Assembly (NCBI GenBank): GCA_035654695.1
Contig: DASRWG010000001.1
Location: forward strand, 7,157 to 71,156
Reading direction: 5' to 3'
DNA length: 64,000 bases
DNA from: Gallionella sp.
GTDB lineage: Bacteria > Pseudomonadota > Gammaproteobacteria > Burkholderiales > Gallionellaceae
The notes beneath the pieces are model-generated. The model worked only from the letters and a program-made list of their open reading frames with translations, was not told the origin of the DNA and did not search any database. The translations under genes were made by a program, and so were the position numbers. Positions 10,951-58,737 of the stretch are shown here, piece by piece (the first letter of the stretch is position 1; each line of letters opens with the position of its first letter).

Positions 10951-11028
<78 letters not shown>

Positions 11029-11032
11029 GTAT

Positions 11033-11045
11033 AATCAACAACTTA
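11033..11045 (+). promoter_or_regulatory. IHF-binding consensus immediately downstream of tRNA-Pro (att-site associated)
   Basis: AATCAACAACTTA matches WATCAANNNNTTR exactly, 4 nt after the tRNA CCA. Confidence 0.6.
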
Positions 11046-12107
11046 CGTCTATTTTTCTCCTCTTGTGGCGGTGTCAGTGAACATCGCGTCATTCTTCCCG
11101 CGTTCCTTTGCTCGCCACTTGAAATTGGATCGAGCCAAACGGCCCACAGTCCGTGCAGCATCCTCAGTTTGGTGTACAGGCGCAGGCCATTAGGCAATTT
11201 CCAACAGTAAGGCGTGGCAATTGGTCGGTGTGATGCCTGAGCAGGCCTGAAGATGGGCGGTCATCAACGGCGGGGGCGCAGCGATAAGAGCCACGATGCC
11301 TAGCGTGATGTTCCGGAATCTCGCCGCCCGGGTTCTATCTGAGGCTGGTCGACGAACATCGAATGCCGCTGATCGAAAATACTATCCCCGAGGTGCTCTC
11401 CGGTCTACAGATGAAGGGCGATTAGCTGCATCCGAATGCAGAAGGACATGCGTTGCTGGTGGGGAAAATATTCGATGCCATGCGGGCTATCGGGTAGGTG
11501 TGCTAGCCGGTGAAAATCGCGTGGGTGCGGCGATGTGCGATGTTGATGGCCTTGTTTCTTTAATGCCGCACCCGTATCTGCATGCCGGACATGTCTCAGA
11601 TTCCGCGAGATAATTACTACATTAAGCAGCTTTAATTTCCTTAATTTCTTTCCCGATTCTTCGTTTCAATTAAGCCCCGCTGACACAAATTCGGTCATTG
11701 CGCAATATGCCGAAATGCATATGTATTTCGGCCTGAGTGCATAGATATTTGATCGAAATATCTATGTAATTCATGTAACTATATAGATATTCTTCGTTGT
11801 TGACTAAGCGCCCCAAGGTCAATAACAATCCGCGTCCGGTTGTGGGGACGGCATTCGTCATAGAGCCTCGCAACATGTAGCTCCATTCACGCCAAAGACA
11901 AAACCTTGAACAGCCAGGCCTGGAATGGGGCAAGCAGGAATGCTGCACCCATACACAAGTAAAAATAACAACAGTAGCAGCTGCTGCGGTATATCGAAGC
12001 TCAGGGGCCTTTGTTCAGGAATGCTTGTCGCCACGCGGGATCAACCGTCACTGGCGAATCGGCTTTACCCGGTTTCGTTCTATCGCGGCAGCTTGAACAG
12101 GGAAAAA

Positions 12108-38516: not shown

Positions 38517-40145
38517 ATGCAACGAGTACAGAAACAAGGCAGCGAATCGGAAAACGCGCAACGCACCGCGCAAGCCAAATTTACGTCTTGGTCGCGCGAG
38601 AACGAGCGCGCGAATGCCATCGATGACAGCCCGGCGATGATCGCCCAGCGCAAGAAGCTCAACAGCTTGTTCGGCGGCGCGATACAACGACAGGGCGCGG
38701 AAGAAGAGATGCTGCAAGGAAAATTCGATGGCGTGCAGAGGGTAGAGGAAGAAGAGCCTCTGCAAGGAAAGTTCGAAACCGCACAACGCGTGGAAGAGGA
38801 AGAGCCGTTACAAGGAAAGTTCGATGTGGCTCAGCGAGTCGAAGAAGAAGAACCTTTGCAGGGGAAGTTTGAGGCGGTGCAGCGGGTAGAGGAAGAAGAG
38901 CCACTGCAAGGCAAATTCGAGACGGCCCAGCGCGTGGAGGATGAGGAACCTCTGCAAGGAAAGTTCGAAGCCGTGCAGCGAGTCGAAGAAGAGGAGCCGC
39001 TACAGGGAAAGTTTGAGGCAGCCTCATCCACCCAGTTGAAGGAAGAGGTCGCCAAGCCCAATAACACCGGCCTGCCGGACAATCTGAAGAGCGGCATAGA
39101 AAATCTTTCCGGCATGTCGATGGACAACGTCAAGGTCCACTACAACTCCTCGCAACCCGCGCAGCTCAACGCGTTGGCCTATGCGCAGGGTACCGACATC
39201 CATGTTGCACCCGGGCAGGAGCAACACCTGCCGCACGAAGCCTGGCATGTGGTGCAGCAGGCGCAGGGACGGGTGAAGCCTACCATGCAGATGAAGGAGG
39301 GCGTGCCGGTCAACGACGATAAGTCGCTGGAGCACGAGGCGGATGTGATGGGGGCGAAGGCGGCTTCAGTCGGAGTGGCGCAAGCAATGAACAAACTAAT
39401 CGAACCAAAGGTTGTTGGCTCTACCCCCTTTCAATGTAAGACTGAAATTGACAATAAATCAGTAGATCAAGCCTACCGTTCGGATGGTGATATATCTCAA
39501 CAAAGAATGGGCGTGGAAATGGAAGCATATCTAGATCCTTGGAATCCATTGCATGGAACTGAATCAGCCGCTTTCGACAGACATGGCATTTATCTTGATG
39601 AGGCATATAACGAAGGCAATGATGGTGCTACAGCCATGCATTTGTTGAATGCAAATTTAGGAGGGCTTGCTGTTGATGAAAATCTATTTCCCGGGCATAC
39701 AAATAAAAACGGACAACACCTGAAATCAGGTGAGACAGAGGTAAAGAACAAGGTGTTAACGTTGATGAATAATGGAAAGAAAGGATGGCGAGTATTTTAT
39801 AAGGTTAGATTTTCTCCGCCTTCAGTGCTTACGCCTGAGAACTTCACAACAGTACCTCTTCAAGTGCAGCATTGTTACGTGAGCCCAGAGGATCAAATGG
39901 TTCTGGACTGGGTAACGGTATCTGAAAAGCCTAATGTAGAGTTGGATGAGGCTGGCTGGAAAACTAGCACGAGCAAAGTCAGGAATAGAAGAGCAACACG
40001 GACGAGAAAATATCTGCATAAGAACACTGAAGGCGAAAGGGCAACTTTTGTAGAGCTCGTTAAGCATGAGGATGATCCAGATAGTGAGGCATTAAGATTC
40101 CACACTCATGTCGCACACGAAGACAAAGATGATTTGTTGAGTTAG
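38517..40145 (+). CDS. DUF4157 (eCIS core) effector 1 with N-terminal repeats and a predicted beta-beta-alpha-Me non-specific nuclease C-terminus
   Basis: [39 protein letters not shown]...[15 protein letters not shown] core; C-terminal [10 protein letters not shown]....NLFP....N..H....E..VK. AAGGAGG SD. Confidence 0.85.
38685..39023 (+). repeat. seven tandem 48-nt (16-aa) repeats [13 protein letters not shown][ED]xx
   Basis: One degenerate 17-aa unit plus six near-identical 16-aa units read from the translation. Confidence 0.95.
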
Positions 40146-40293: not shown

Positions 40294-43167
40294 ATGATCT
40301 CGCTTCTTTACCTGATACGACTCTTTGCCCTGCTCGTGCTGCTCTGCGCCGCGCCCGCGTTCGCCGTCACTCCGATGGTGGCGGCGGGTTACGGTCATAC
40401 GGTCGCGCTGAAATCAGACGGCACGGTTTCGGCATGGGGCGACAACGCGCAAGGGCAACTGGGGATAGGCAGCATGGATTATCGCCTGACCCCGGCAGCC
40501 ATTCCGGAATTTACCGGCATCGCTGACTTGTCGGCGGGGCGTGAGCACACGCTGGCGCTAAAGTCGGACGGCACGGTGTGGGCATGGGGCGGAAACTATC
40601 CCAACGGGCAACTGGGCGATGACTCGCTGACGTCGCAATCGAGTCCCGTTGTTGTGCCGGAACTGAAAGATGTCGCCGCAGTGGTGGCGGGGGGCTGGCA
40701 CAGCCTCGCGCTGAAATCGGACGGCTCGGTGCTGGCTTGGGGTAAAAACGTTTCGGGCCAAGTGGGTGATGGCAGCAAGGTGGCGCGGCCCTCGCCGGTG
40801 GCGATTCAGGAGCTTGTAGGCGTACGCGCTATTGCGGCGGGCGAGGCGCACAGCGCGGCGCTGAAATCCGATGGCACGGTCTGGGCGTGGGGCGACAACG
40901 CGCATGGGCAGCTCGGCGACGGCACTGTGCTGGGCCGTCTGGCTCCGGTGAGGGTGCAGGGGATCGATGGCGTAGTGGCGATTGCGGCGGGCGGCAATCA
41001 CACGGTTGCGTTGAAGGCGGACGGTACGGTGTGGGCGTGGGGCGGCAACGCACACGGACAACTCGGCAATGAAAACACGGCGGACAGTTCGGTTCCGGTG
41101 CGGGTGCTGGGGCTCGATGGAGTGATTTCGATCACGGCGGACGGCGGCTTTACGCTGGCGTTGAAAGCGGATCATACGGTGTGGGCGTGGGGCGATAACT
41201 CGCATGGACAACTCGGCGACGGCACTACGACGGATCGCTCCAATCCGGTACAGGTGCCGAACCTTGTCGGTGTAGTGGCGATTGCTGCGGGCGAGGGGCA
41301 TGCGGTTGCGTTGAAAGCGGACGGCACGGTGGTCGCGTGGGGCTGGAACTATTCCGGCCAAGTGGGCGATGACAGTTGGGGGATAGATCGCTCGAGTCCT
41401 GTCGCGGTGTTGGGTGAACTCAATTTAGGAAGCAGCCAGATCGATGCGGAGCAGAGTGTGAGTTTCGGCGACGCGCCGCAGCTTGCCGCGGGGCAGCGCG
41501 CCAGGGTCAAGGCCGTAGCGAGTTCAGACCTCGCCGTGCATTTCTCCAGCACGACGCCTGCCGTCTGCATGGTCATCGGCGACGAGGTCAGCGCGACTGC
41601 GGCGGGCGAGTGCATCGTCGCCGCCGATCAAGCGGGCGACGGACATTACCGCGCCGCACCGCGCGCGATGCAGCGCATCCCCGTCGGCAAGGGCAGCCAG
41701 ACCATCGCTTTCGGTGTTGCGCCGCTGGTCATCGTGGGCAGCAGCGGAAAGCTGCGCGCCGCCGCCAGTTCCGGCCTTGCACCGGTTTTCGGCAGCCTGA
41801 CGCCCGACGTGTGCAGCGTCAGCGGCGACACCTTGAGCGGTATCGACGAAGGCATTTGCGTCGTCTCCGCGAACCAGCCGGGCAATGCCGACTACAACTC
41901 GGCCACGCCGGAGAAACAGTCCAGCCGCATCCACGAGACCATCTTCATCATGCCCAGAATGGCGGCGGGCGGCGCGCACAGCATGTGCCTCAAGTACGAC
42001 GGCACGGTGAGCGCGTGGGGCGACAACTCGCAAGGGCAGCTCGGCAGCGGCGGCTCGGGGCAGCAGCGTAGCCAGATCGGAATTTCCAGCCTCAAGAGCG
42101 TGCTGTCGCTGTCCGCGGGCATGTACCACACCGTCGCGCTGATGTTCGGCGGCACGGTGCAGACCTGGGGCGATAACGACAAGGGGCAACTGGGCGATGG
42201 CGGCAAGCAACGGCGCGATACGCCTGCAACGGTGCCGGGGCTCAGCGATGTGCGCGACGTGGCGGCGGGCGGCTGGCACAGCGTTGCGCTGATGAACGAC
42301 GGTACGGTGCGGGCGTGGGGCATGAACAACAACGGCCAGTTGGGCGACGGCAGCACGATGGATCGAACCGGCCCCGTTGCGGTGAAGGGTCTCGCCGACG
42401 TGAAAGCGATTGCGGCGGGACGCGATTTCACCGTGGCGCTGAAAAACGACGGGACGCTGTGGGCCTGGGGCAACAACGCGCACGGCCAACTGGGCGACGG
42501 CACGACGCTGAATCGCAACGCGCCGGTGCAGGTCGCGGGATTGAAAGACGTGCTAGTCGTGGCAGCGGGAGGGGCTTACACGCTGGCGACCAAGTCCGAC
42601 GGCACGGTGTGGTCGTGGGGAAAAAACGATACCGGCCAGTTGGGCAACGGCTCTCTGGACGAAAGCTACAAGCCGACGCTGGTGCCCAAGCTCGCCAAGG
42701 CGCTCGCGCTCGCGGCAGGCAGCGAACACGCGCTGGCGTTGCTGGAGGGCGGCGCGCTGCTGGCTTGGGGCGACAACACCTACGGGCAACTGGGCAACGG
42801 CACGATCAAGGCAAGCACCGTGCCGGTCCCCGTGGCAAAGATCGCCGACGTCATCGCCGTGGCGGCGGGGGACGGGCACAGCGTGGCGCTCAAGGCAGAC
42901 GGCACGAAAATGTCTTGGGGCAACAACAGCGCGGGGCAACTGGGCGACGGCAGCACGAAGAATCACTCCCTCCCGGCGGAAGTGCCGGAGCCGCTGGGAT
43001 GGAAAGTGTGGCTGTGGTTGTGGGATCAGATCAAGGCGCTGCCGGACAAGCTGATGGGTTTGCAGAAGATGCTGGCTGCGCCCGAACTGCCGCCGTTGCC
43101 GCCGCTGCCTCCGATACCGGAAGTGCCTAAGGTGGAGATGCCGAAGCTGGAGGCACCCAAGAAGTAG
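40294..43167 (+). CDS. secreted RCC1/BLIP-II-repeat protein: two beta-propellers joined by two Ig-like linker domains, Pro-rich tail
   Basis: Sec signal (LLVLLCAAPAFA); many AAG..HT.ALK.DGTVWAWG.N..GQLGDG repeats in two blocks; middle Q.I.F....A.ASSGL...F.S.TP.VC units. Confidence 0.9.
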   Translation: MISLLYLIRLFALLVLLCAAPAFAVTPMVAAGYGHTVALKSDGTVSAWGDNAQGQLGIGSMDYRLTPAAIPEFTGIADLSAGREHTLALKSDGTVWAWGGNYPNGQLGDDSLTSQSSPVVVPELKDVAAVVAGGWHSLALKSDGSVLAWGKNVSGQVGDGSKVARPSPVAIQELVGVRAIAAGEAHSAALKSDGTVWAWGDNAHGQLGDGTVLGRLAPVRVQGIDGVVAIAAGGNHTVALKADGTVWAWGGNAHGQLGNENTADSSVPVRVLGLDGVISITADGGFTLALKADHTVWAWGDNSHGQLGDGTTTDRSNPVQVPNLVGVVAIAAGEGHAVALKADGTVVAWGWNYSGQVGDDSWGIDRSSPVAVLGELNLGSSQIDAEQSVSFGDAPQLAAGQRARVKAVASSDLAVHFSSTTPAVCMVIGDEVSATAAGECIVAADQAGDGHYRAAPRAMQRIPVGKGSQTIAFGVAPLVIVGSSGKLRAAASSGLAPVFGSLTPDVCSVSGDTLSGIDEGICVVSANQPGNADYNSATPEKQSSRIHETIFIMPRMAAGGAHSMCLKYDGTVSAWGDNSQGQLGSGGSGQQRSQIGISSLKSVLSLSAGMYHTVALMFGGTVQTWGDNDKGQLGDGGKQRRDTPATVPGLSDVRDVAAGGWHSVALMNDGTVRAWGMNNNGQLGDGSTMDRTGPVAVKGLADVKAIAAGRDFTVALKNDGTLWAWGNNAHGQLGDGTTLNRNAPVQVAGLKDVLVVAAGGAYTLATKSDGTVWSWGKNDTGQLGNGSLDESYKPTLVPKLAKALALAAGSEHALALLEGGALLAWGDNTYGQLGNGTIKASTVPVPVAKIADVIAVAAGDGHSVALKADGTKMSWGNNSAGQLGDGSTKNHSLPAEVPEPLGWKVWLWLWDQIKALPDKLMGLQKMLAAPELPPLPPLPPIPEVPKVEMPKLEAPKK

Positions 43168-43246: not shown

Positions 43247-44542
43247 ATGCAAAAAGCCGAAGCGCAACATAACCACGCGCAGCCCGCCGTGCGACAGGGC
43301 AAGGGCGCATCGCTCGAATCGCCGCAGGGCGAACGGATCGCGCAACTCGAAGCGATGGCCGAGAGCAGCCCGCAGGCAGGCAAGCTAGCTCAACTCGCGG
43401 TGATGGTCGATTCCAGTCCGGCGATGGCAGCGCAACGCAAGCTGATTGGGCAGGCACATGGCAGTCCAGCGATGACGGCTCAGAGCAAAGCTGTCAATGG
43501 TATCGCTCAGCGCGCCGAGACTCCGGCCAAGCCGAACAATACCGGCCTGCCGGACAACCTCAAGAGCGGTATCGAGTCGCTCTCCGGCATGTCGATGGAC
43601 AACGTCAAGGTGCATTACAACTCATCGCAGCCGGCGCAACTCAACGCGCTGGCCTATGCGCAGGGCACCGACATCCACGTCGCACCGGGGCAGGAACAGC
43701 ATCTGCCGCATGAGGCTTGGCATGTGGTGCAGCAGGCGCAGGGGAGGGTGAGGCCGACGATGCAGCTGAAGGATGGCGTGCCAGTCAACGACGATGCCGG
43801 GCTGGAGCACGAGGCGGATGTGATGGGAATGAAGGCACTTGAATCACGAAATGGTACTGAGGGAGCCGGCTTCAGCGTGGCGTCCAACCAGCCCCGCCAA
43901 TTGTTCAGTCCCAAATCAAGTGAATTTCCGGTACAGCGTATCGTGTATTTCGCGGACAACAATGGGGAATCTCCTGCATTGGCAGCTCCACCCCAAGGTG
44001 GGGTCGTATGGGTTAGCCCGCTTGGCGATGTAAACAATACGCTTTACGGGACTTCTGCACTTGCCAACCAGGCCGTGCGGGGGCTGCTCGGTGTTGGTGA
44101 CGCTGAGCCAACGGCAGAGGCGGAATGCTATGCAGGTCCCGCCCAGAATGGTCCATATTTTTACTGGTGGGATGATGATCAAGCGCCGACGACAGTGAAA
44201 ATAATGCCGACTCATACCCAAGACGGCACAAACCAGTTATATCGCTTCTCGAATACGGAGGTGTCCGTTTATACGCCTGTCGTGCACAACCATGCGGCCC
44301 AGATACAAGCAGAGAATTCTGGTGCTGCATGGGCAATTTCGGCCAATCCGGCGTTGCCGTACGTTCCTTACCCTAATGCATTGAATCACTACTTGCACAA
44401 ACCTGCAGTAGCAGGATCAATGAAACTCAAGCAAGAAGTCTCCCTGAAGTTAAAAACTGCATCGTCCAAGGGGGAGGACAAGACTTACGCAAAAGACACA
44501 TTCGAAAAGGCGGCCAAGAGTGGAGTTGCATCGCTTGTTTAA
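43247..44542 (+). CDS. DUF4157 effector 2 with an unrecognised C-terminal domain
   Basis: Same DUF4157 core (43529-43835, HEAWH), followed by an unrelated ~230-aa region. Confidence 0.85.
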   Translation: MQKAEAQHNHAQPAVRQGKGASLESPQGERIAQLEAMAESSPQAGKLAQLAVMVDSSPAMAAQRKLIGQAHGSPAMTAQSKAVNGIAQRAETPAKPNNTGLPDNLKSGIESLSGMSMDNVKVHYNSSQPAQLNALAYAQGTDIHVAPGQEQHLPHEAWHVVQQAQGRVRPTMQLKDGVPVNDDAGLEHEADVMGMKALESRNGTEGAGFSVASNQPRQLFSPKSSEFPVQRIVYFADNNGESPALAAPPQGGVVWVSPLGDVNNTLYGTSALANQAVRGLLGVGDAEPTAEAECYAGPAQNGPYFYWWDDDQAPTTVKIMPTHTQDGTNQLYRFSNTEVSVYTPVVHNHAAQIQAENSGAAWAISANPALPYVPYPNALNHYLHKPAVAGSMKLKQEVSLKLKTASSKGEDKTYAKDTFEKAAKSGVASLV

Positions 44543-44590
44543 TGTATGGGTACAGAAATATCGAAGACTCGACAATAGGGAAAGATATAA

Positions 44591-46438
44591 ATGCCAAACA
44601 GTGCACGCGCAGCATTGCACCTGACCAACGATCCCATCATCTCTAAAAGCCAGAACGAGAGTCTGGCGCGGATGGTGCGGAACGTTCACGAGAAATGCTT
44701 TAAAGCGGGAGAGACGATCTACAAGGCGCATGCCGATGCCGACACGCTTTACCTGATCGAGAGCGGGACGGTGGAACTGGTCACGCCTGAGGGCAAGCGC
44801 GTGACGATGGACGGGACGCGCTTCGGTGAGGAGGCTGCGACGGATGTGCCTTGCTATCTTTCCGACGCCGTTGCGGTCACCGATGTGGTCGCGTTCAGCG
44901 TGCCGCGCACCAGCTTGATCGGGCTGAACCAGTACAACCCGGGACACAAGGCGGAGTTCTATTTTTCGCTGTTGGCGAATTTCGGCGGGGAGGAGGTGCG
45001 TCGCGCATCGACGGCGCAGTCCGCGCGCCACAAGCCGAAGGAGCGCGATGGCATCGAGGCGTTCGGTTGGGCGCTGGCGATCCTGATTCCGCTGGGGATC
45101 ATGATGTTCGCGGGCGACTGGGGCGTCGGGCGCGAGGTGAAGACCTTCCTCGCGATTTTCAGCGCGGCGATCGTGATGTGGGTGTTCGAGCTCGTCGATG
45201 AGTTCATCCCCGGATTGTTCGCGGTGCTGATGATCCTCGCGATGGGGCTCGCGCCGCCCAAGGTGGTGTTGGGCGGCTTCGCCTCCGACGGCTTCTTCAT
45301 GGCGATGAGCATTCTCGGGCTGGGCACCGTGGTGGTGTATTCCGGGCTGAGTTTCCGCTGCCTGTTGTGGCTGCTGCGCTACCTGCCCGGTACGAACATC
45401 GGACACAACTTCGGCCTGCTGTTCACAGGCTACCTGATTAATCCGGTGATCCCTTCGATCAACGCTCGCACGGTGATGATGGCGCCGTTCCTGATCGACA
45501 TGGTGGAGACGGTGAAATTCCATTTGCGCGGCAAGGCGGCGACGCGGCTGGCGATTGCGGCCTTTACCGGGGCGACGCTGTTCTCGGCGACTTTCCTGAC
45601 CAGCCGTTCGATCAACTTCGTGATCTACGGCATGCTGTCACCACAGGAGCAGCAGCATTTCTCGTGGATCTACTGGCTGTTCTCGACCTCGGTCGCGGCC
45701 ATTGCGATGCTGGCGTTGTACCTGATCGCGGTCAAGCTGATGTTCGGCAGCGCGGAGAAGCCACAATTGTCGAAGCAGCAGGTCAATGTCCAGATGCAGT
45801 TGCTGGGGAAAATCAAGCAGCGCGAGTGGGCCGCCATCGCCGGCATCGTGCTGTTTACCATCGGCATCGTCACCACCTCCATCCACAATATCCAGCCGCC
45901 GTGGATGGGCATGGCGATACTCTACGGTCTGCTGCTGTTCGGTTTCCTGAGCCGTAGCGAGTTCAAGGAGAAGACCGACTGGCCGGGACTGGTCTATCTC
46001 GGCACACTGATCGGCGTCATCGCTACGTTCAACTATCTCGGGCTGGACAAGTGGCTGACCGCCGAACTCTCAGTGCTGGGCGAGGTGTTGAGCAAGAGTT
46101 TCGGCCTGTTCGTCGCGCTGCTCTTCGTGGTGATCTTCGTGATGCGGCTGGCCTTCCCGAATACCGCGACCATTGCCATCTGCGCGACCATTTTCATGCC
46201 GGTTGCAAGCCAGGCCGGTGTGAATCCCTGGGTAATCGGCTTCATTCTGCTGCTGCTCGGCGACATGTGGGTCTTCCCCTACCAGTGCCCGCATTACCAG
46301 CAGTTCCAGGAACTGGTGCGCGAGAAGCGCATATACGACGAGGGGATGTTCCTCAAATTTAACATGCTGATGAATTTTGTCCGGCTGGCCGGTATTTATG
46401 CCGCGATTCCGTTCTGGGCTGCGCTGGGGTTGCTATGA
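44591..46438 (+). CDS. cyclic-nucleotide-binding-like domain fused to an SLC13/DASS-family permease
   Basis: F..GETIY.....AD.LYLIESG.V...FGEEA (cNMP fold), then ~12 hydrophobic helices with DASS-like signatures (IF..A..MW...,P...AR...M.P,...S...F.T....N). Confidence 0.82.
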   Translation: MPNSARAALHLTNDPIISKSQNESLARMVRNVHEKCFKAGETIYKAHADADTLYLIESGTVELVTPEGKRVTMDGTRFGEEAATDVPCYLSDAVAVTDVVAFSVPRTSLIGLNQYNPGHKAEFYFSLLANFGGEEVRRASTAQSARHKPKERDGIEAFGWALAILIPLGIMMFAGDWGVGREVKTFLAIFSAAIVMWVFELVDEFIPGLFAVLMILAMGLAPPKVVLGGFASDGFFMAMSILGLGTVVVYSGLSFRCLLWLLRYLPGTNIGHNFGLLFTGYLINPVIPSINARTVMMAPFLIDMVETVKFHLRGKAATRLAIAAFTGATLFSATFLTSRSINFVIYGMLSPQEQQHFSWIYWLFSTSVAAIAMLALYLIAVKLMFGSAEKPQLSKQQVNVQMQLLGKIKQREWAAIAGIVLFTIGIVTTSIHNIQPPWMGMAILYGLLLFGFLSRSEFKEKTDWPGLVYLGTLIGVIATFNYLGLDKWLTAELSVLGEVLSKSFGLFVALLFVVIFVMRLAFPNTATIAICATIFMPVASQAGVNPWVIGFILLLLGDMWVFPYQCPHYQQFQELVREKRIYDEGMFLKFNMLMNFVRLAGIYAAIPFWAALGLL

Positions 46439-47466
46439 CGAAAAAACTGAAAAACTGGCTGGTGGTCGCATTCCTGCTGCTGGTCGTCTTCCTGCTGTTC
46501 TGGTTCAAGGCGACGCAGCCCAGGGTGCTGGTGATACATAGCTACGACCCTGACTATGCATGGACGCGGGATGTCGATACCGGTCTCCATCGAGTGTTCG
46601 ATAGCAACCTGCACCATAAGGTCCAGTGGCACTACATGAACACCAAGAAACATCCTGACGCCGAATTCAAGCGCCGGGCGGGCATGCTCGCTACGCGTGA
46701 GATCGAGCGTTTTCGTCCCGACGTGATTATCGCGGTCGACGACGATGCGCAGAAATATGCAGTGAAGGAATACGCCAAAGACCCTAAGGTCAGGATCGTG
46801 TTCGGCGGCCTCAACGGTTCCGCAGTGCCATACAACTACCACCTCTCGAAGAACGCGACCGGTATCTACGAACGCAAGCCGCTCGGCAGCTTGCTCAGCA
46901 TGTTGTCCGAGGTGCGCGACGGGGCGGGAATGCCGCTCGGGAAACGCATCGTTCACATCGGGGATCGATCCGATTCCGTCATGGAAGACAGCAAGGCCAT
47001 CGAGTCCATGGACTGGACGCCATTCCGGCTGGTTGCCTCGATGCACGCCGGCACTCTGGACGAATGGAAGCGCGCCGTTCTGGAGGCTTCGGAAAAGGGC
47101 GACTTGATCCTCATCTCGAATTACCAGAATGTCCTGCGGCAGGACGGAAAAGACGGTTTCGTGCCGCCCGCCGAACTCATGGAGTGGACCGAAGCCAATT
47201 CCCGTATACCCGTGGTCGGGATGGGCGGCTTCATGGTGGAAGACGGCGGCATGCTCGCCGTGGGCGCTTCCGGCTTCGAACAGGGCGACGTGATCGCGCG
47301 CATGACCATGAGGATACTGGATGAGGAAATCAGTCCCGGCGACATTCCGCACGTCATGCCGCGCCAGTACCTGGTCTACATGCGCCAGGCGGTGATGGAG
47401 AAACGGGGGCTCAAGCTGCCGGATATCTACGAGGCGTTTTCGCGGGCGTCGAACAACTATCATTGA
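46435..47466 (+). CDS. membrane-anchored ABC-type substrate-binding-like (sensor-like) periplasmic protein
   Basis: N-terminal TM; RVLVIHSYDPDYAWT; PDVIIAVDDDAQ; IVFGG.N; PV.G...F.V..GG.L.V.....EQG...A. ATGA overlap with the permease. Confidence 0.78.
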   Translation: MTKKLKNWLVVAFLLLVVFLLFWFKATQPRVLVIHSYDPDYAWTRDVDTGLHRVFDSNLHHKVQWHYMNTKKHPDAEFKRRAGMLATREIERFRPDVIIAVDDDAQKYAVKEYAKDPKVRIVFGGLNGSAVPYNYHLSKNATGIYERKPLGSLLSMLSEVRDGAGMPLGKRIVHIGDRSDSVMEDSKAIESMDWTPFRLVASMHAGTLDEWKRAVLEASEKGDLILISNYQNVLRQDGKDGFVPPAELMEWTEANSRIPVVGMGGFMVEDGGMLAVGASGFEQGDVIARMTMRILDEEISPGDIPHVMPRQYLVYMRQAVMEKRGLKLPDIYEAFSRASNNYH

Positions 47467-47511
47467 AGATCAGTCCGCTTTCGCTAACGGGAGCATACGG
47501 GGGAGAGGTAT

Positions 47512-48960
47512 ATGCAAAAAGCCGAACCGCAACAAAAGCCAATTCAGAACCAATCCGCCCAGCGGCAGGGGCATGGCGTCTCGCTCGAATCTCCGCAGGG
47601 CGAACGGATCGCGCAACTCGAAGCGATGGCAGCGAGCAGTTCCCAGACGGGCAGGTTGGCGCAGCTCGCGGGGATGGCGAACACCAGCCCGCGCATGGCC
47701 GCGCAACGCAAGGCGATCCGCGCCATTCACAACAGTCCGAACGTGACCGCGCAGCGGCAACAGATCGACAGCCTTACCGGGGGAACCGCGCAGCGCAAGG
47801 AGGCGGAAGAGCCGCTGCAAGCAAAAGTCGCACAGCGCGAAGCCGCGCCTGTCAAACCGAATAACACCGGCCTGCCCGACAACCTCAAGTCCGGCATCGA
47901 GAATCTTTCCGGCATGTCCATGGACAACGTGAAGGTCCACTACAACTCATCGCAGCCTGCGCAACTCAATGCGCTGGCCTACGCGCAAGGGGCCGATATT
48001 CACGTTGCACCCGGACAGGAGCAGCACCTGCCGCATGAGGCCTGGCACGTGGTGCAGCAGGTGCAGGGGCGCGTGCAGCCGACGATGCAGATGAAGGAAG
48101 GAGTCCCGGTCAACGACGATGCAGGTCTGGAGCGCGAGGCGGATGTGATGGGGGCGAAAGCAGTCTCAGTTGGAGCGGTGCAAGCGAAACGATCAATCGA
48201 GTCTGCCCCCATTGATGCAAAACTTGACCTCATTAATACACCAGCTAGGAATCACGACTACAACCTCCAGTTATTTCACAACAATACCCATGCACCTGTT
48301 GTTCAGCGTATAGGTCCCAGCTATATTCCAAAGGAAGATGGACCCAATGCATTTATCGATCAAGCCCCGGCAACAGCAGGAGTAGTCTCCTTTGACAATG
48401 TCGCAGATGCATTTTATGCAGGATTACCGAGTGAACATGTCAGTGAAATTGAAATTATTGGTGGAATAGACACTTACGCCAATGATGCTGGAGGCGGTGA
48501 TGTTGTACGGACAGGAGACGTCAATCCGGTAATTGGACAAATTGATCACATCGTTCCACGCTCGCGTGGTGGTGGTACTTCATTTCGCAACGCGCAATTA
48601 GTGGATGCGCCAACAAATAATGCTAAAAACGATGCCTATCCTTGTCCAATCAGTAATCTCAACGGTACGCGGGTGTTTCTTGGAACATCCAAATGGAATA
48701 TGCCAGCAGGTACCATCCTTGCGACAGATTTCGCGTCGCAAAGAATACAAATTTTGGAAAATGCGCGTGTGCCAAAAAATCTGGGAGTCACATTGTATGA
48801 AACAGCCGGGGCCGGACAGGGGACGCAAATTACTGCTGAGACTCAGACTGCAGCGCGAAATCATTATGTACCGGAGAACGATACTGAACTTCAGTGGTTA
48901 AGCTACGACGAAGCACGCGCGAACGGACTTGCTCCAGGCGAAGGAGGACCGTTGGCCTAA
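47512..48960 (+). CDS. DUF4157 effector 3 with an HNH endonuclease motif
   Basis: DUF4157 core at 47854-48160; C-terminal QIDHIVPRSRGGGTSFRNAQLVDAPTNNAKND. Confidence 0.85.
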   Translation: MQKAEPQQKPIQNQSAQRQGHGVSLESPQGERIAQLEAMAASSSQTGRLAQLAGMANTSPRMAAQRKAIRAIHNSPNVTAQRQQIDSLTGGTAQRKEAEEPLQAKVAQREAAPVKPNNTGLPDNLKSGIENLSGMSMDNVKVHYNSSQPAQLNALAYAQGADIHVAPGQEQHLPHEAWHVVQQVQGRVQPTMQMKEGVPVNDDAGLEREADVMGAKAVSVGAVQAKRSIESAPIDAKLDLINTPARNHDYNLQLFHNNTHAPVVQRIGPSYIPKEDGPNAFIDQAPATAGVVSFDNVADAFYAGLPSEHVSEIEIIGGIDTYANDAGGGDVVRTGDVNPVIGQIDHIVPRSRGGGTSFRNAQLVDAPTNNAKNDAYPCPISNLNGTRVFLGTSKWNMPAGTILATDFASQRIQILENARVPKNLGVTLYETAGAGQGTQITAETQTAARNHYVPENDTELQWLSYDEARANGLAPGEGGPLA

Positions 48961-48987: not shown

Positions 48988-49021
48988 CGGTGGTTGGGGG
49001 AAACCAACCACCGCGTTGTTG
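48988..49021 (+). terminator. hairpin after effector 3
   Basis: CGGTGGTTGG-GGGAAA-CCAACCACCG, perfect 10-bp stem followed by CGTTGTTG. Confidence 0.6.
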
Positions 49022-49148
49022 TCTGTAAAAATCGATGGGGTCAGACTCCATTGAACGTGGCCAACAAAACGACAAAAATAACCAAGCGGCCTATCGATCC
49101 GATCATCTCCATCGATTCACGAGATTATTCAAGACAAGACTACATCAC

Positions 49149-49292
49149 ATGCAAAACAATCAAGAAAAACAAGTCAGGCTGCCATGCCCGAATTGCGGCA
49201 TACAGATTCAGGTTTGGGGTGCGCATCTGCTTTATGCGCAGACAATTCGTTGCGATGCATGCGGGGTGGAACTGGCGCTGGATAAGGAATAA
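49149..49292 (+). CDS. 47-aa zinc-ribbon-like small protein
   Basis: MQNNQEKQVRLPCPNCG...IRCDACGVELALDKE, two CxxC motifs. Confidence 0.55.
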   Translation: MQNNQEKQVRLPCPNCGIQIQVWGAHLLYAQTIRCDACGVELALDKE

Positions 49293-49380: not shown

Positions 49381-49770
49381 ATGGGCCAGCAAGTCTGCAT
49401 GAACGCCGTGATGCAATGCAGTTTCGGCATGGCGCCGAGCTCGCTGATGGTGTTACCCAAGAACCGGGTGATGACGGGCAATGTGCCGGATGCAAACATC
49501 ATGGACAACATTCCGTTCGTTAATATTCTGCCGTTCGGGATGTGCCAGAGTTTGGCCAACCCCGCGGTGGCGGCGGCGACTGCGGCGGCTTTGGGGGTGT
49601 TGACGCCGATGCCATGCACGCCGATGACGGCTGCGCCCTGGGCACCGGGCTGCGCGACGGTGATGATCGCCAACATGCCCGCGCTGAACAATTCTTCCAA
49701 GCTGATGTGTTCGTTCGGCGGGGTGATCTCGATCAACTTTGCCGGGCAGGCGACGGTTAATATTCCGTGA
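49381..49770 (+). CDS. DUF4280 PAAR-like spike-tip protein
   Basis: A..QCSFG.APS.L.V; ANIMD..P..NI.PFG.C.S.ANP.VA; PC.P....PW.PG; L....KLMC..GG.I. GGAGG SD. Confidence 0.9.
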   Translation: MGQQVCMNAVMQCSFGMAPSSLMVLPKNRVMTGNVPDANIMDNIPFVNILPFGMCQSLANPAVAAATAAALGVLTPMPCTPMTAAPWAPGCATVMIANMPALNNSSKLMCSFGGVISINFAGQATVNIP

Positions 49771-49952
49771 TAGTGGGCGCGTGAGCTGGATCTCCTTTGG
49801 AATTAACCGCAGTTAAACGAAGGTATCGCAGCCGGTTTGTTGGCATGAATCGCACTGCAAATCGGAGTCGCGGCGGTCAATAGCCTATAATGCTGAAGCG
49901 GCATCGCTATTGGTGATTTCATTGGGCATGGGTTATCATGCCGCCTCGCCGA

Positions 49953-49980
49953 GGAGGTTCGAATCTTCTCGTCCCGATCA
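49953..49980 (+). repeat. degenerate att-like copy of the tRNA-Pro 3' end
   Basis: 25/28 identity to 11001-11028; all three differences are C>T. Confidence 0.85.
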
Positions 49981-50040
49981 ACTGAAATCCCAGACAACAT
50001 CTCAACTTTTCCGGCATTCCCGAATGCTCTTCACCAGCCG

Positions 50041-56494: not shown

Positions 56495-56607
56495 CGTACG
56501 GGATGCCGGGGGACTACAATCCGGACCGGATGGAAAAACGAATTTGAATGCGCTGCTATTTTCCGAATCCGCCGAACCATAACGGAACCCGGCTCGCACA
56601 AGACCTG

Positions 56608-58128
56608 ATGCCTATTTACAACCCTTTGTCCTTGATCAAATCCATCGCGTGGGCGAAGCTGCTTGGCGTGGCCTTGCTCTACGCATCGCTGATCTATATC
56701 GGCGATGCGATCTTTGAAAGCGGCGCCGTCATCGCGCATCTTGAATTGGCCAGCGGTTTTGCGCTGGCATCGCTGCTGATGGGTGGGATGCGATATGCCG
56801 CAAGCGTATTCCTCGGTGCCGTCACGGCCCATGCCATTCTGGGCGCCGGCCTGGGGGAAATCGCCATCGTCGCGTCGAGCGACGCACTGGAAGCCATGCT
56901 CGGAGTCTGGCTGCTGATGCACGGCGAAAAGTTCGATCTGCATCTTCAATCGTTGCGCGCCTACGTTCGATTGGTTCTGCTGGGCGGCTGCGTCAGTATC
57001 GCCATCAGCGCCCTGATTACAAATACGCTATTGTTGTTCTTCGGGTTCATTGCCTACGAGGAAGTTGTTAACAGCATGCTCCACTGGTGGATGAGCGATA
57101 CGCTGGGTGTCATCCTGGTGACTCCGTTGATCCTCGTCTGGTCGCGGGGAAAATGCCATTGGTGCGAAACTGGACAGTTGGCCGAAGCGGTCTTTCTGCT
57201 TGGCCTGACGGTTTTGGTCGGGCAGATCGTTTTTCTCGATTGGCTGCACGACGTCGTGGGGCCGACCGCCAACGGTTACTGGATGTTCATGCTGATCACC
57301 TGGGTGGCCATGTTTCTGGGAGCCCGCGGCACGACGGTCGCCTTGCTCGCGGTGGCAGTCCAGGCGTTGCTCGGCGCAACGCAGGGGGTGGGATATTTCG
57401 CGCATGATATTGAACAGGCCAGCCTGCTCAATTACTGGTTCTATATATTGACGCTGTCCCTGGTCGGCATGTCGCTGGCGACCTATGTGCATGAAATCCG
57501 GCAGGCGAACTTTGCCTTGGCCCATCGCGATGCGCTGATACGCGAGATCCATCATCGCATCAAGAACAATATCCAGGGCATCACCGGATTGCTGCGCCAG
57601 CTCGCGGAGAAGCAACCGGACATCAGGGGCGCGATCGATCAGACGATCAGCCAGGTGCAGAGCATCGCGACGATACATGGCTTGCAGGAGGGAACCGCGG
57701 CGGACAATGTCGAGCTGGGCGAGCTGGTTGATGCGGTGGCAAGCGGGGTCGGGTCGCTGTGGGGAAGCGCCATTCGGGTCGATATGTCCCCGGACTGGAG
57801 GCCTTGCGTCGTCGATGCGGCAGAGGCCGTGCCGCTGGCGCTGATATTGAACGAACTGCTGTCGAATGCCCTCAAGCATGGAGACCGGCCCGGACAGATC
57901 AGGGTCGGACTCGAGCATGGTCGCGACCTGGACTCCGTACATGTCGTCATCCGCAATGCCGGCCACTTGCCGCCCGGTTTCAATTTCGAGCACGATACCG
58001 GCACCGGACTGCAGTTGGTAAGATCGCTGATGCCGAGACATGGTGCGGGCATGTCCTGGCAGCATCGCGACAATACAGTGATCGCTGTGCTGGAGCTGGA
58101 ACCGCCCGTCATTACTTTCAGGTCATGA
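56608..58128 (+). CDS. MASE1-domain sensor histidine kinase (HisKA_2 type)
   Basis: N-terminal multi-TM region with WW..D.LG....TP; H-box REIHHRIKNNIQ; LILNELLSNALKHG; NAG..P..F...GTGL.LV. Confidence 0.88.
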   Translation: MPIYNPLSLIKSIAWAKLLGVALLYASLIYIGDAIFESGAVIAHLELASGFALASLLMGGMRYAASVFLGAVTAHAILGAGLGEIAIVASSDALEAMLGVWLLMHGEKFDLHLQSLRAYVRLVLLGGCVSIAISALITNTLLLFFGFIAYEEVVNSMLHWWMSDTLGVILVTPLILVWSRGKCHWCETGQLAEAVFLLGLTVLVGQIVFLDWLHDVVGPTANGYWMFMLITWVAMFLGARGTTVALLAVAVQALLGATQGVGYFAHDIEQASLLNYWFYILTLSLVGMSLATYVHEIRQANFALAHRDALIREIHHRIKNNIQGITGLLRQLAEKQPDIRGAIDQTISQVQSIATIHGLQEGTAADNVELGELVDAVASGVGSLWGSAIRVDMSPDWRPCVVDAAEAVPLALILNELLSNALKHGDRPGQIRVGLEHGRDLDSVHVVIRNAGHLPPGFNFEHDTGTGLQLVRSLMPRHGAGMSWQHRDNTVIAVLELEPPVITFRS

Positions 58129-58131
58129 GTC

Positions 58132-58737
58132 ATGAATCCAAACGCCACCTCTGAAACGACAATTCTCCTGGTCGACGACGACCGGCTGGTGCTGTCCACG
58201 CTCTCCATGGGAGTGGCCAGGGCGGGTTATCGCGTCGTCACCGCTGAATCGGCGGACGATGCGGAAGCCTTCCTGGCGAGCGGAGAACGTCCAGATCTGG
58301 CCATACTCGACGTCAGGATGCCGGGCACGAGCGGGCTGGCGCTGGCGGAGCGGTTGCGTTCGCTGGACCATATTCCGTTCATGCTGCTGACTGCTTACAG
58401 CGATCCGGAAACAGTCGAACGGGCAACGGCTTCCGGTGCGTTGGCTTATCTGGTCAAGCCCGTCGATACGCCGCAACTGGTGCCGGCCATCAAGGCCGCG
58501 CTGGCGCGCGCCAAGGATATACATGGCCTGGAAGCGACCGAACGGCAGTTGCAGCAGGCACTCAACAGCGAGCGGGAAATCAGTATTGCGATCGGTATCA
58601 CCATGATGCAGTACCGCCTCGATCGCAAGGCGGCTTTCGAGCTGTTGCGCAAGACCGCCCGCAGCCAAGGGCGCAAACTGGCGGTGCTTGCGGGGGAAGT
58701 CATCGGCGCGAGCGAAACCCTGAATCTCGGCGCGTAG
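58132..58737 (+). CDS. response regulator with ANTAR domain
   Basis: ILLVDDD; PDLAILDVRMP; LTAY; YLVKP; C-terminal I..AIGI.M......AF..LR..AR....KL...A..V. Confidence 0.9.
   Translation: MNPNATSETTILLVDDDRLVLSTLSMGVARAGYRVVTAESADDAEAFLASGERPDLAILDVRMPGTSGLALAERLRSLDHIPFMLLTAYSDPETVERATASGALAYLVKPVDTPQLVPAIKAALARAKDIHGLEATERQLQQALNSEREISIAIGITMMQYRLDRKAAFELLRKTARSQGRKLAVLAGEVIGASETLNLGA

Follow-up and report, generated by a model that had tools for sequence, protein, structure and literature searches.

The two genes treated here lie side by side on a 64,000-nt stretch of Gallionella sp. DNA, which is called the window throughout. The first, open reading frame (ORF) A (44591-46438, + strand), encodes 615 aa. 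Pfam, AlphaFold2 (AF2) modelling and Foldseek divide this protein into an N-terminal cytoplasmic domain with a cyclic nucleotide-binding (CNB) fold, a disordered linker and a carrier of the DASS/SLC13 fold. The second, ORF B (46435-47466, + strand), encodes 343 aa. By the same three methods it has a transmembrane anchor at its N-terminus (helix aa 3-27), followed by a periplasmic type I binding-protein domain of family PF04392, as expected of a substrate-binding protein (SBP). The stop codon of ORF A and the start codon of ORF B share ATGA at 46435-46438 (context cTATGAcg), an overlap that we read as translational coupling of the two genes.

The neighbours of the pair are of a very particular kind. 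A DUF4157/eCIS_core effector-type gene (43247-44542, + strand; Pfam) stops 48 bp ahead of ORF A, and a DUF4157/eCIS_core-HNH effector-type gene (47512-48960, + strand; Pfam) starts 45 bp past ORF B. The eCIS_core/DUF4157 domain is a mark of the toxins of extracellular contractile injection systems (eCIS; PMC8213781). An independent assembly (run X1) contains a single 4293-nt contig that spans 43330-47622 with zero differences, and the gene arrangement is therefore not an assembly chimera. An earlier note on this DNA had described two coupled genes wedged between effector genes, and the coordinates, the junction and the flanking eCIS_core/DUF4157 genes all confirm that description. What might a carrier and a binding protein be doing in such company?

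The carrier and the binding protein

The membrane body of ORF A is recognizable by fold and by profile. The DASS transport core (aa 162-558; 45074-46264, + strand) matches the Pfam model Na_sulph_symp with 97.4 bits against a cut-off of 27. In the AF2 model (pLDDT 79.7) a beta-roll with C-helices is followed by a disordered linker at aa 142-151 and an all-helical membrane body, and this body has the DASS scaffold and the transport-domain fold with its two helical hairpins. Foldseek matches it to AtDiT2.1 (TM score 0.82) and to NaS1, NaDC3, NaCT and VcINDY (0.74-0.81). When solved structures were searched with single sequences, ORF A found CNB structures only and ORF B found nothing; profiles were needed for the DASS matches and for ORF B. 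A profile of the transmembrane part of the carrier reaches DiT2.1 (8e-22), DiT1 (2e-19), LaINDY (7e-16), SLC13A1 (6e-8) and VcINDY (4e-6). The best matches by profile and fold are therefore AtDiT1, AtDiT2.1 and LaINDY (PDB 9mcr, 9mcu and 6wtw), which also share the hairpin motif described next. However, identity to them is only about 17-18%, and those exchangers work without a binding protein and without a CNB domain.

The motif in question is P288-S-I-N291-A-R293, or P-S-x-N-[AG]-R across the family, in which P288, N291 and R293 are invariant (as are many other carrier columns). The alignment, together with what is generally known of DASS structures, suggests that it forms the tip of the first hairpin. 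It aligns with PSTTAR, PSVSAR and PSNSAR in the exchangers DiT2.1, DiT1 and LaINDY. In other words, the PSINAR of the window corresponds to the exchanger-type PS[TVN][TS]AR and not to the SNT of Na+-coupled members, which suggests coupling to something other than Na+. The invariance of this tip across the family is as expected for a working carrier, and the carrier gene is under purifying selection within eCIS islands (dN/dS 0.07-0.12). As far as sequence and model can tell, ORF A belongs to the Na+-independent, exchanger-like branch of the DASS-fold, elevator-type anion carriers, where DiT1, DiT2 and LaINDY are closest to it.

The N-terminal domain is where ORF A departs from its canonical relatives. 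The CNB-like beta-roll (aa 35-111; 44693-44923, + strand) matches the Pfam model cNMP_binding (PF00027) with 46.6 bits against a cut-off of 27.5, and Foldseek matches the N-terminus to the HCN2 CNB domain and to CRP. Canonical CNB domains (PKA-R, CRP, HCN, MloK1) share with it the beta-roll and C-helix fold and the G-E of the phosphate-binding cassette. However, their cassette reads G-E-x-A...R-[ST]-A, whereas that of ORF A, as placed by Pfam and alignment, reads G79-E80-E81-A...Y89-L-S-D-A93. The G-E is kept, Tyr89 sits where the Arg that contacts the cyclic phosphate should be (as seen in an alignment with a canonical paralogue, GEMALLTGEPRSA) and L-S replaces [ST]-A. The strings FGEEA and PCYLSDA, on which the earlier note had based its claim of a cassette without its Arg, are both present in ORF A, and the claim extends well beyond the window. 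All 22 of the 22 aligned SBP-paired sequences, those next to a cyclase gene included, have the cassette GEE[AG]-x6-Y-x-x-x-A. In this respect ORF A is like those CNB-homology domains whose ligand is a different one, or which have no ligand. We infer from the Tyr-for-Arg exchange either an unusual hold on a cyclic nucleotide or a different ligand.

Only one sequence has a canonical PRSA cassette, namely the paralogue aligned above. It is a second carrier paralogue in a Nitrospirae bin (L028, 7140-8987), it has no SBP gene downstream and it is the single such case found. It is tempting to derive from it a rule that a canonical cassette goes with the lack of an SBP. Such a rule was discarded, as this type is a singleton in the genome collection (n=1).

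ORF B matches the PF04392 model ABC_sub_bind (27.3 bits), and its AF2 model (pLDDT 90.4) has an N-terminal helix at aa 3-27 followed by a two-lobed type I periplasmic binding-protein fold. Foldseek matches it first to 3LKV (1e-14), then to CD0873 and 3LFT (about 1e-12 to 1e-11), with TM scores up to 0.75 for these PF04392 structures, and then to LuxP. Across 25 homologues (42-76% identity) there are 38 invariant columns, and dN/dS within eCIS islands is 0.10-0.21, once again a sign of purifying selection. The likeness to the PF04392 proteins 3LKV (V. cholerae), CD0873 (C. difficile), 3LFT (S. pneumoniae, Trp-bound) and TrpX consists of the fold and weak family-model matches, with 12-17% identity. 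These proteins serve ABC importers or are lipoproteins, whereas ORF B has a transmembrane-helix anchor and pairs with a DASS carrier.

The hallmark of PF04392 proteins is an operon partner consisting of an ABC permease and ATPase. The domain scan of the window covered ORFs of at least 150 aa, and among these no ABC permease or ATPase was found across the 64 kb, just as the earlier note had said of the SBP. One could imagine that ORF B is an orphan that serves a distant ABC system. This explanation is contradicted by the universal coupling of the SBP gene to the DASS gene, its partner throughout the family.

Two observations concern the history of the pair. In the same genome pairs (the window against L001 and L011-13), SBP dS is 0.68-0.84, about twice the 0.34-0.46 of the adjacent carrier gene, which hints at recombination or at a separate history of the SBP gene. 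Between the window and L012, SBP identity is 76% beside a 100% identical AAA ATPase fragment, and foreign insertion or hypervariability of the pair was considered for this reason. This was rejected, since at the DNA level the pair (86%) has diverged much as its neighbours have (80-92%) and dN/dS is low.

A conserved carrier-SBP module

The association of the two genes is not peculiar to the window. Homologue searches and two genome scans yielded approximately 90 loci (numbered L001 onwards) from several phyla. They include Betaproteobacteria (Gallionellaceae, Oxalobacteraceae, Rhodocyclaceae and others), Nitrospirae including Ca. Magnetobacterium, Magnetococcales and one Vicinamibacterales bin, and among cultured bacteria there are strains of Massilia, Duganella, Undibacterium, Telluria, Herbaspirillum and Noviherbaspirillum. 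The SBP gene lies directly 3' of the carrier gene in 26 of the 27 loci first examined, and in the full set with downstream DNA it follows the carrier gene everywhere but in L028. Of 84 distinct loci, 66 have a junction with a 4-nt [AG]TGA overlap, and in three others the genes overlap by 1 nt (TGATG). When all flanking ORFs were clustered without bias, no other neighbour family occurred in more than 13 of 92 loci. At E <= 1e-30 an SBP profile recovers 573 representative clusters, nearly all of which are stand-alone proteins of about 345 aa.

DASS carriers are textbook elevator transporters, and in every studied case that we know of they work alone. Binding proteins are known to serve a few other secondary carriers. 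Before TAXI-GltS, which was described in 2025, only TRAP and TTT carriers were known to use one (PMC12344293). TAXI-GltS of Bordetella pertussis was proposed as a new SBP-dependent class by reasoning of the type used here (Jaques et al., 2025, PMC12344293). The authors of that study ask for more such classes, with which one could find out whether SBP coupling is made possible by the elevator mechanism (PMC12344293). The pair resembles all three systems in that a binding-protein gene is linked and translationally coupled to the gene of an elevator-type secondary carrier (here in 66/84 loci, and with a DASS fold), with no ATPase. There is also a structural relationship, because DctM of TRAP shares the DASS fold, and a weak Pfam DctM match was seen as well.

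However, the differences are substantial. The membrane part has the DASS fold instead of being DctQM, TctAB or GltS. In place of DctP, TAXI or TctC, the SBP is a type I PF04392 protein anchored by a transmembrane helix. A Q-like or other small subunit is absent, and a cytoplasmic CNB-like domain is added. With PF04392 as its SBP and DASS as its carrier, the pair would therefore be a separate class and not a member of TRAP, TTT or TAXI-GltS. Literature searches found no published description of a CNB-DASS protein, of PF04392 with DASS or of transporters in eCIS. The pairing of a DASS carrier with a binding protein thus appears to be previously undescribed. It may be regarded as a variant of the known binding-protein-coupled carriers and as a candidate for a further class of SBP-dependent elevator transporters.

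How might such a module work? The reading that we consider somewhat better than an even bet is that both genes encode one membrane device, an SBP-coupled and CNB-gated DASS carrier. The tethered SBP would capture a small molecule in the periplasm, probably an organic or aromatic anion. It would then either pass this ligand on to the dimeric carrier, in the manner of TRAP, TTT and TAXI-GltS, or control the carrier allosterically. From the inside, the CNB-like domain would gate the carrier in response to a cytoplasmic ligand. One candidate for the latter is a cyclic nucleotide, as the product of the dCache-HAMP cyclase encoded beside the pair in some relatives; a ligand that is not a nucleotide is another. 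The earlier note had proposed a secondary transporter that is assisted by the SBP and gated by a non-canonical ligand, and this is still the best-supported interpretation, given the near-universal adjacency of the genes, their predicted coupling, the invariant hairpin motif, the Arg-to-Tyr exchange and the purifying selection.

Several observations do not fit so comfortably. The NCBIfam DASS model TIGR00785 gives ORF A 95.4, well below its cut-off of 198.6, and the Pfam score of ORF B is barely above threshold (27.3 versus 25.9). The second hairpin motif (PNTAT in the window) varies across the family. No SBP-carrier fusion occurs among the top 150 of 6635 SBP-profile matches (representatives). 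Finally, two points bear on any special role at an eCIS: most family members lie away from any contractile injection system (CIS), and the clustering of accessory genes in islands raises the odds of adjacency by chance.

Perhaps the device does not transport anything. A tethered SBP acting like LuxP or like TagR-type periplasmic receptors could make the pair a transceptor or sensor without net transport, in which the DASS body and the CNB-like domain signal to the control of a secretion system. It is true that LuxP, the AI-2 receptor, in complex with LuxQ provides the next-best fold matches of the SBP after the PF04392 structures, that cyclases of the sensor type adjoin the pair in eight loci and that the settings in the clade of the window (see below) are regulated secretion machines. 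In Nitrospirae, moreover, the gene directly after the pair encodes a DUF3369-SpoIIE/PP2C phosphatase to which a paralogous SBP-like domain is fused. However, the carrier has no recognizable output domain beyond the CNB-like fold and no partner kinase or regulator is conserved beside the pair, while the substrate-site motif at the hairpin tip is kept family-wide as in a working carrier. A pure sensor is therefore improbable, in our estimation.

The Nitrospirae proteins deserve a comment of their own. In magnetotactic members (L021, 13182-15515; L049; L053) the pair is followed by a 777-aa protein in which the SBP-like periplasmic domain is joined to DUF3369 and a SpoIIE/PP2C phosphatase. The PF04392-type binding fold is therefore also a sensor domain in those Nitrospirae.

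The cyclases raise a different possibility. A dCache-HAMP class III cyclase gene is adjacent to the pair, or overlaps it, in eight distinct loci, all of them outside the clade of the window. A CNB domain and a membrane protein beside a class III cyclase are reminiscent of PycC plus PycTM, and the pair might then act in a Pycsar- or CBASS-like abortive infection, with a cyclic-nucleotide-activated membrane protein that kills the cell. The cyclase domain of the relatives indeed matches PycC models (2e-24), and the CNB profile weakly matches PycTIR (8jsk). However, the sensor domains of those cyclases, dCache and HAMP, are typical of signalling enzymes, and no PADLOC model matches the carrier or the SBP. 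The membrane part, a complete and conserved DASS carrier, has its obligate partner in the periplasm, and the cassette has no phosphate-binding Arg. In the 64 kb of the window no nucleotide cyclase was found, either in the domain scan of ORFs of at least 150 aa or by tblastn with cyclase seeds. With no PADLOC match and no cyclase in the window, a defence identity of the pair was rejected, and we regard it as very unlikely indeed.

The pair at injection-system loci

In the window the pair is part of an island. A tRNA-Pro(GGG) gene (10952-11028, + strand) forms the left boundary, and the final 25 nt of this gene (11001-11025) are repeated with 23/25 identity at 49953-49977 (+ strand), between a DUF4280 gene and surE. 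The eCIS locus of about 39 kb, including the pair, is therefore a tRNA-bounded island, and this upholds the placement of the pair inside att boundaries by the earlier note. Core genes lie on both flanks, with dnaB, thrS, infC, pheST, an HU/IHF-like gene and the tRNA-Pro gene on one and surE, pcm, nlpD and uvrD on the other. No integrase-like ORF was seen at either island edge (10952-11925 and 49770-50040) or among the scanned ORFs, and the island may thus be immobilized.

The structural genes of the eCIS occupy 11925-34964 (+ strand) and encode Pvc16_N, the sheath, two tube proteins, a LysM-like tube protein, a VgrG-like spike, the baseplate, a tape measure of 2517 aa and an AAA ATPase. The locus also has genes for a methyltransferase, DUF4157 proteins, an RCC1-repeat protein and DUF4280. 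The PAAR-like DUF4280 gene (49381-49770, + strand) is the last gene of the island. A consensus scan, which was the only method applied to such sites, found no + strand promoter-like or terminator-like site from 38000 up to the first terminator-like hairpin 3' of the pair, at 48988-49013 (+ strand), just past the HNH effector gene. This is consistent with co-transcription of the pair with the neighbouring effector genes, which seems plausible, but it is no proof. A look for RNA runs that contain the stretch found none.

A few features of the island and its surroundings were noted in passing. The tape-measure ORF (26026-33579) has a CIS_TMP match limited to its last 350 aa or so. Its length is very great for an eCIS and would predict an unusually long tube if length scales as in phage tails. 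The RCC1-repeat protein in the effector array (957 aa, 40294-43167) lacks DUF4157, starts with a signal-peptide-like sequence and ends in a Pro-rich tail; it is kept at the same place in L001, L011 and L012. Between the HNH effector gene and the DUF4280 gene, just past the hairpin, there is an ORF of 85 aa (49035-49292) with two CxxC pairs that give weak zinc-ribbon matches. A MASE1 histidine kinase and an ANTAR response regulator are encoded at 56548-58737, about 6 kb beyond the island.

Is the association with an injection system a general one? Across the whole family it is not, as approximately 70 of the 90 or so loci show no CIS marker. Other neighbours include additional binding-protein-like genes (NMT1_3/TAXI-like, PBP_like_2), nonribosomal peptide synthetase (NRPS) genes, a Tad pilus and pairs of DUF2589 genes. 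Two DUF2589 genes and an ORF of about 92 aa recur 3' of the pair in two distant branches (L003, 13721-15417; Massilia/Duganella loci L050, L065, L067, L070, L077, L079 and L087), and no useful literature was found on DUF2589, a domain of no known function. Most family members are not near a CIS, and some of these lie beside a dCache-HAMP class III cyclase instead. A CIS-specific role therefore cannot be ancestral, and the basic function of the pair is independent of CIS.

The picture changes when only the clade of the window is considered. This Gallionellaceae-type clade, defined by at least 60% carrier identity, has 15 informative loci, and 12 of them lie in eCIS or type VI secretion system (T6SS) clusters. 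The pair is found within eCIS effector arrays in the window, L001, L002 (at the end of the array), L011-13 and L093. In L094-96 it lies inside the eCIS structural operon itself, in the order DUF4157 effector, YbjN-like protein, carrier, SBP, tube2, LysM-like tube, spike and baseplate. The structural proteins there are 55-82% identical to those of the window, and the pair itself 65% and 54%, from which the pair appears to have co-diverged with the eCIS in this clade. Other members adjoin a T6SS. In L014 the pair is divergent from tssK/tssM, and in L015 and L018, which have ClpV-VgrG-MORN-DUF4280 clusters, it is convergent with vgrG-DUF4280. Two further loci (L016 and L097) have the pair next to a gene with a secretin domain, together with ABC and HlyD genes of a type I secretion system (T1SS), and L003 is the only clade locus without eCIS, T6SS or secretin/T1SS genes.

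In a neighbour-joining tree the CIS-linked loci fall into one clade, with the T6SS-linked members basal. Outside it, only two of some 70 other loci are CIS-adjacent (L020 and L092), as independent cases elsewhere in the tree. The link to CIS is therefore clade-specific, robust to rearrangement and persistent across a change in the type of injection system, and it is not a property of the whole family. In the Gallionellaceae-type clade, contractile-injection and secretion loci have the module as a stable accessory. The co-occurrence with CIS loci that the earlier note had asked about is thus uncommon family-wide and common in the clade of the window, and part of what it had named as fatal to its idea, a pair that occurs mostly without CIS, is true of the family and false of that clade. 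Its interpretation as a whole is partly borne out: the molecular reading is the best-supported one, and the tie to CIS holds for the clade but not for the family.

Two side results belong with these comparisons. The DUF4280 protein of the island (49381-49770) is 69-74% identical to those of the T6SS vgrG clusters in L015 (8313-8696) and L018 (17266-17649), which suggests an exchange of tip modules between T6SS and eCIS in the lineage of the window. A three-gene unit made up of an FGE-sulfatase gene and the pair (L092, L031) was also considered, and it was dropped because the similarity in L031 is weak and distant.

A simpler explanation for all this is that the pair is a passenger, that is, an ordinary nutrient or anion transporter that lands as accessory cargo in effector arrays, vgrG islands and tRNA islands and has no role for a CIS. 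Such a transporter would be at home in the many loci without a CIS marker, with their varied contexts (NRPS, Tad pilus, cyclase, DUF2589, extra binding proteins). There is also a means by which it could come and go. An N-terminal module of about 600 bp is common to the three DUF4157 effector genes (38517-39380, 43247-43840 and 47512-48180), with approximately 80-89% DNA identity within and between genomes. Two of these repeats bracket the pair and could mediate its gain or loss by recombination. Metagenome contigs break or branch at the effector repeats, and a co-occurring strain variant has another sequence just ahead of the carrier gene (loose end at 44590, run X3). A form lacking the pair was not among the metagenome contigs examined, and such contigs cannot prove absence.

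However, the clade of the window speaks against a mere passenger. There, the 12 CIS-linked loci show at least five arrangements (in the array, at its end, in the structural operon, divergent from tssK/tssM and convergent with vgrG-DUF4280), and there are two independent cases outside the clade. The divergence of the pair matches that of the accompanying eCIS proteins, and purifying selection on it is strong. The passenger explanation accounts for the family at large but fits the pattern in the clade poorly. We consider it unlikely overall, yet a good deal more credible than a sensor or a defence system.

A possible input to injection systems

If the pair is an SBP-coupled, CNB-gated carrier, what could it do for an eCIS? 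At such a locus it could detect, or take up, some periplasmic cue or substrate of relevance to the deployment of the system. For eCIS and T6SS alike, its role may possibly be the sensing of a cue or the import of released solutes, or it may be nothing at all.

The most far-reaching version of this idea is that the module is both a new SBP-dependent DASS class and the dedicated small-molecule input device of the CIS of this clade, one that decides when the eCIS and T6SS weapons are made or used. A periplasmic cue would be read via the tethered SBP and a cytoplasmic ligand via the Tyr-type CNB domain. This would explain why the pair follows the switch between T6SS and eCIS and why it sits inside an eCIS structural operon. 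It is an enticing idea, but we regard it as a long shot.

Geller et al. have surveyed eCIS, and the terms 'transporter', 'permease' and 'cyclic nucleotide' never occur in the main text of their paper (PMC8213781).

The module matters on two counts. If the favoured reading is true, an SBP-coupled DASS carrier with a CNB-like gate would be a further class of the kind sought for testing the idea that the elevator mechanism permits coupling to an SBP, and the occurrence of the pair in cultured Massilia, Duganella, Undibacterium and Noviherbaspirillum makes it testable. As for the injection systems, the control of eCIS production is, to our knowledge, largely unknown. A conserved membrane module whose divergence parallels that of an eCIS lineage, and which is found with T6SS loci as well, would be a concrete candidate for an accessory or input function.

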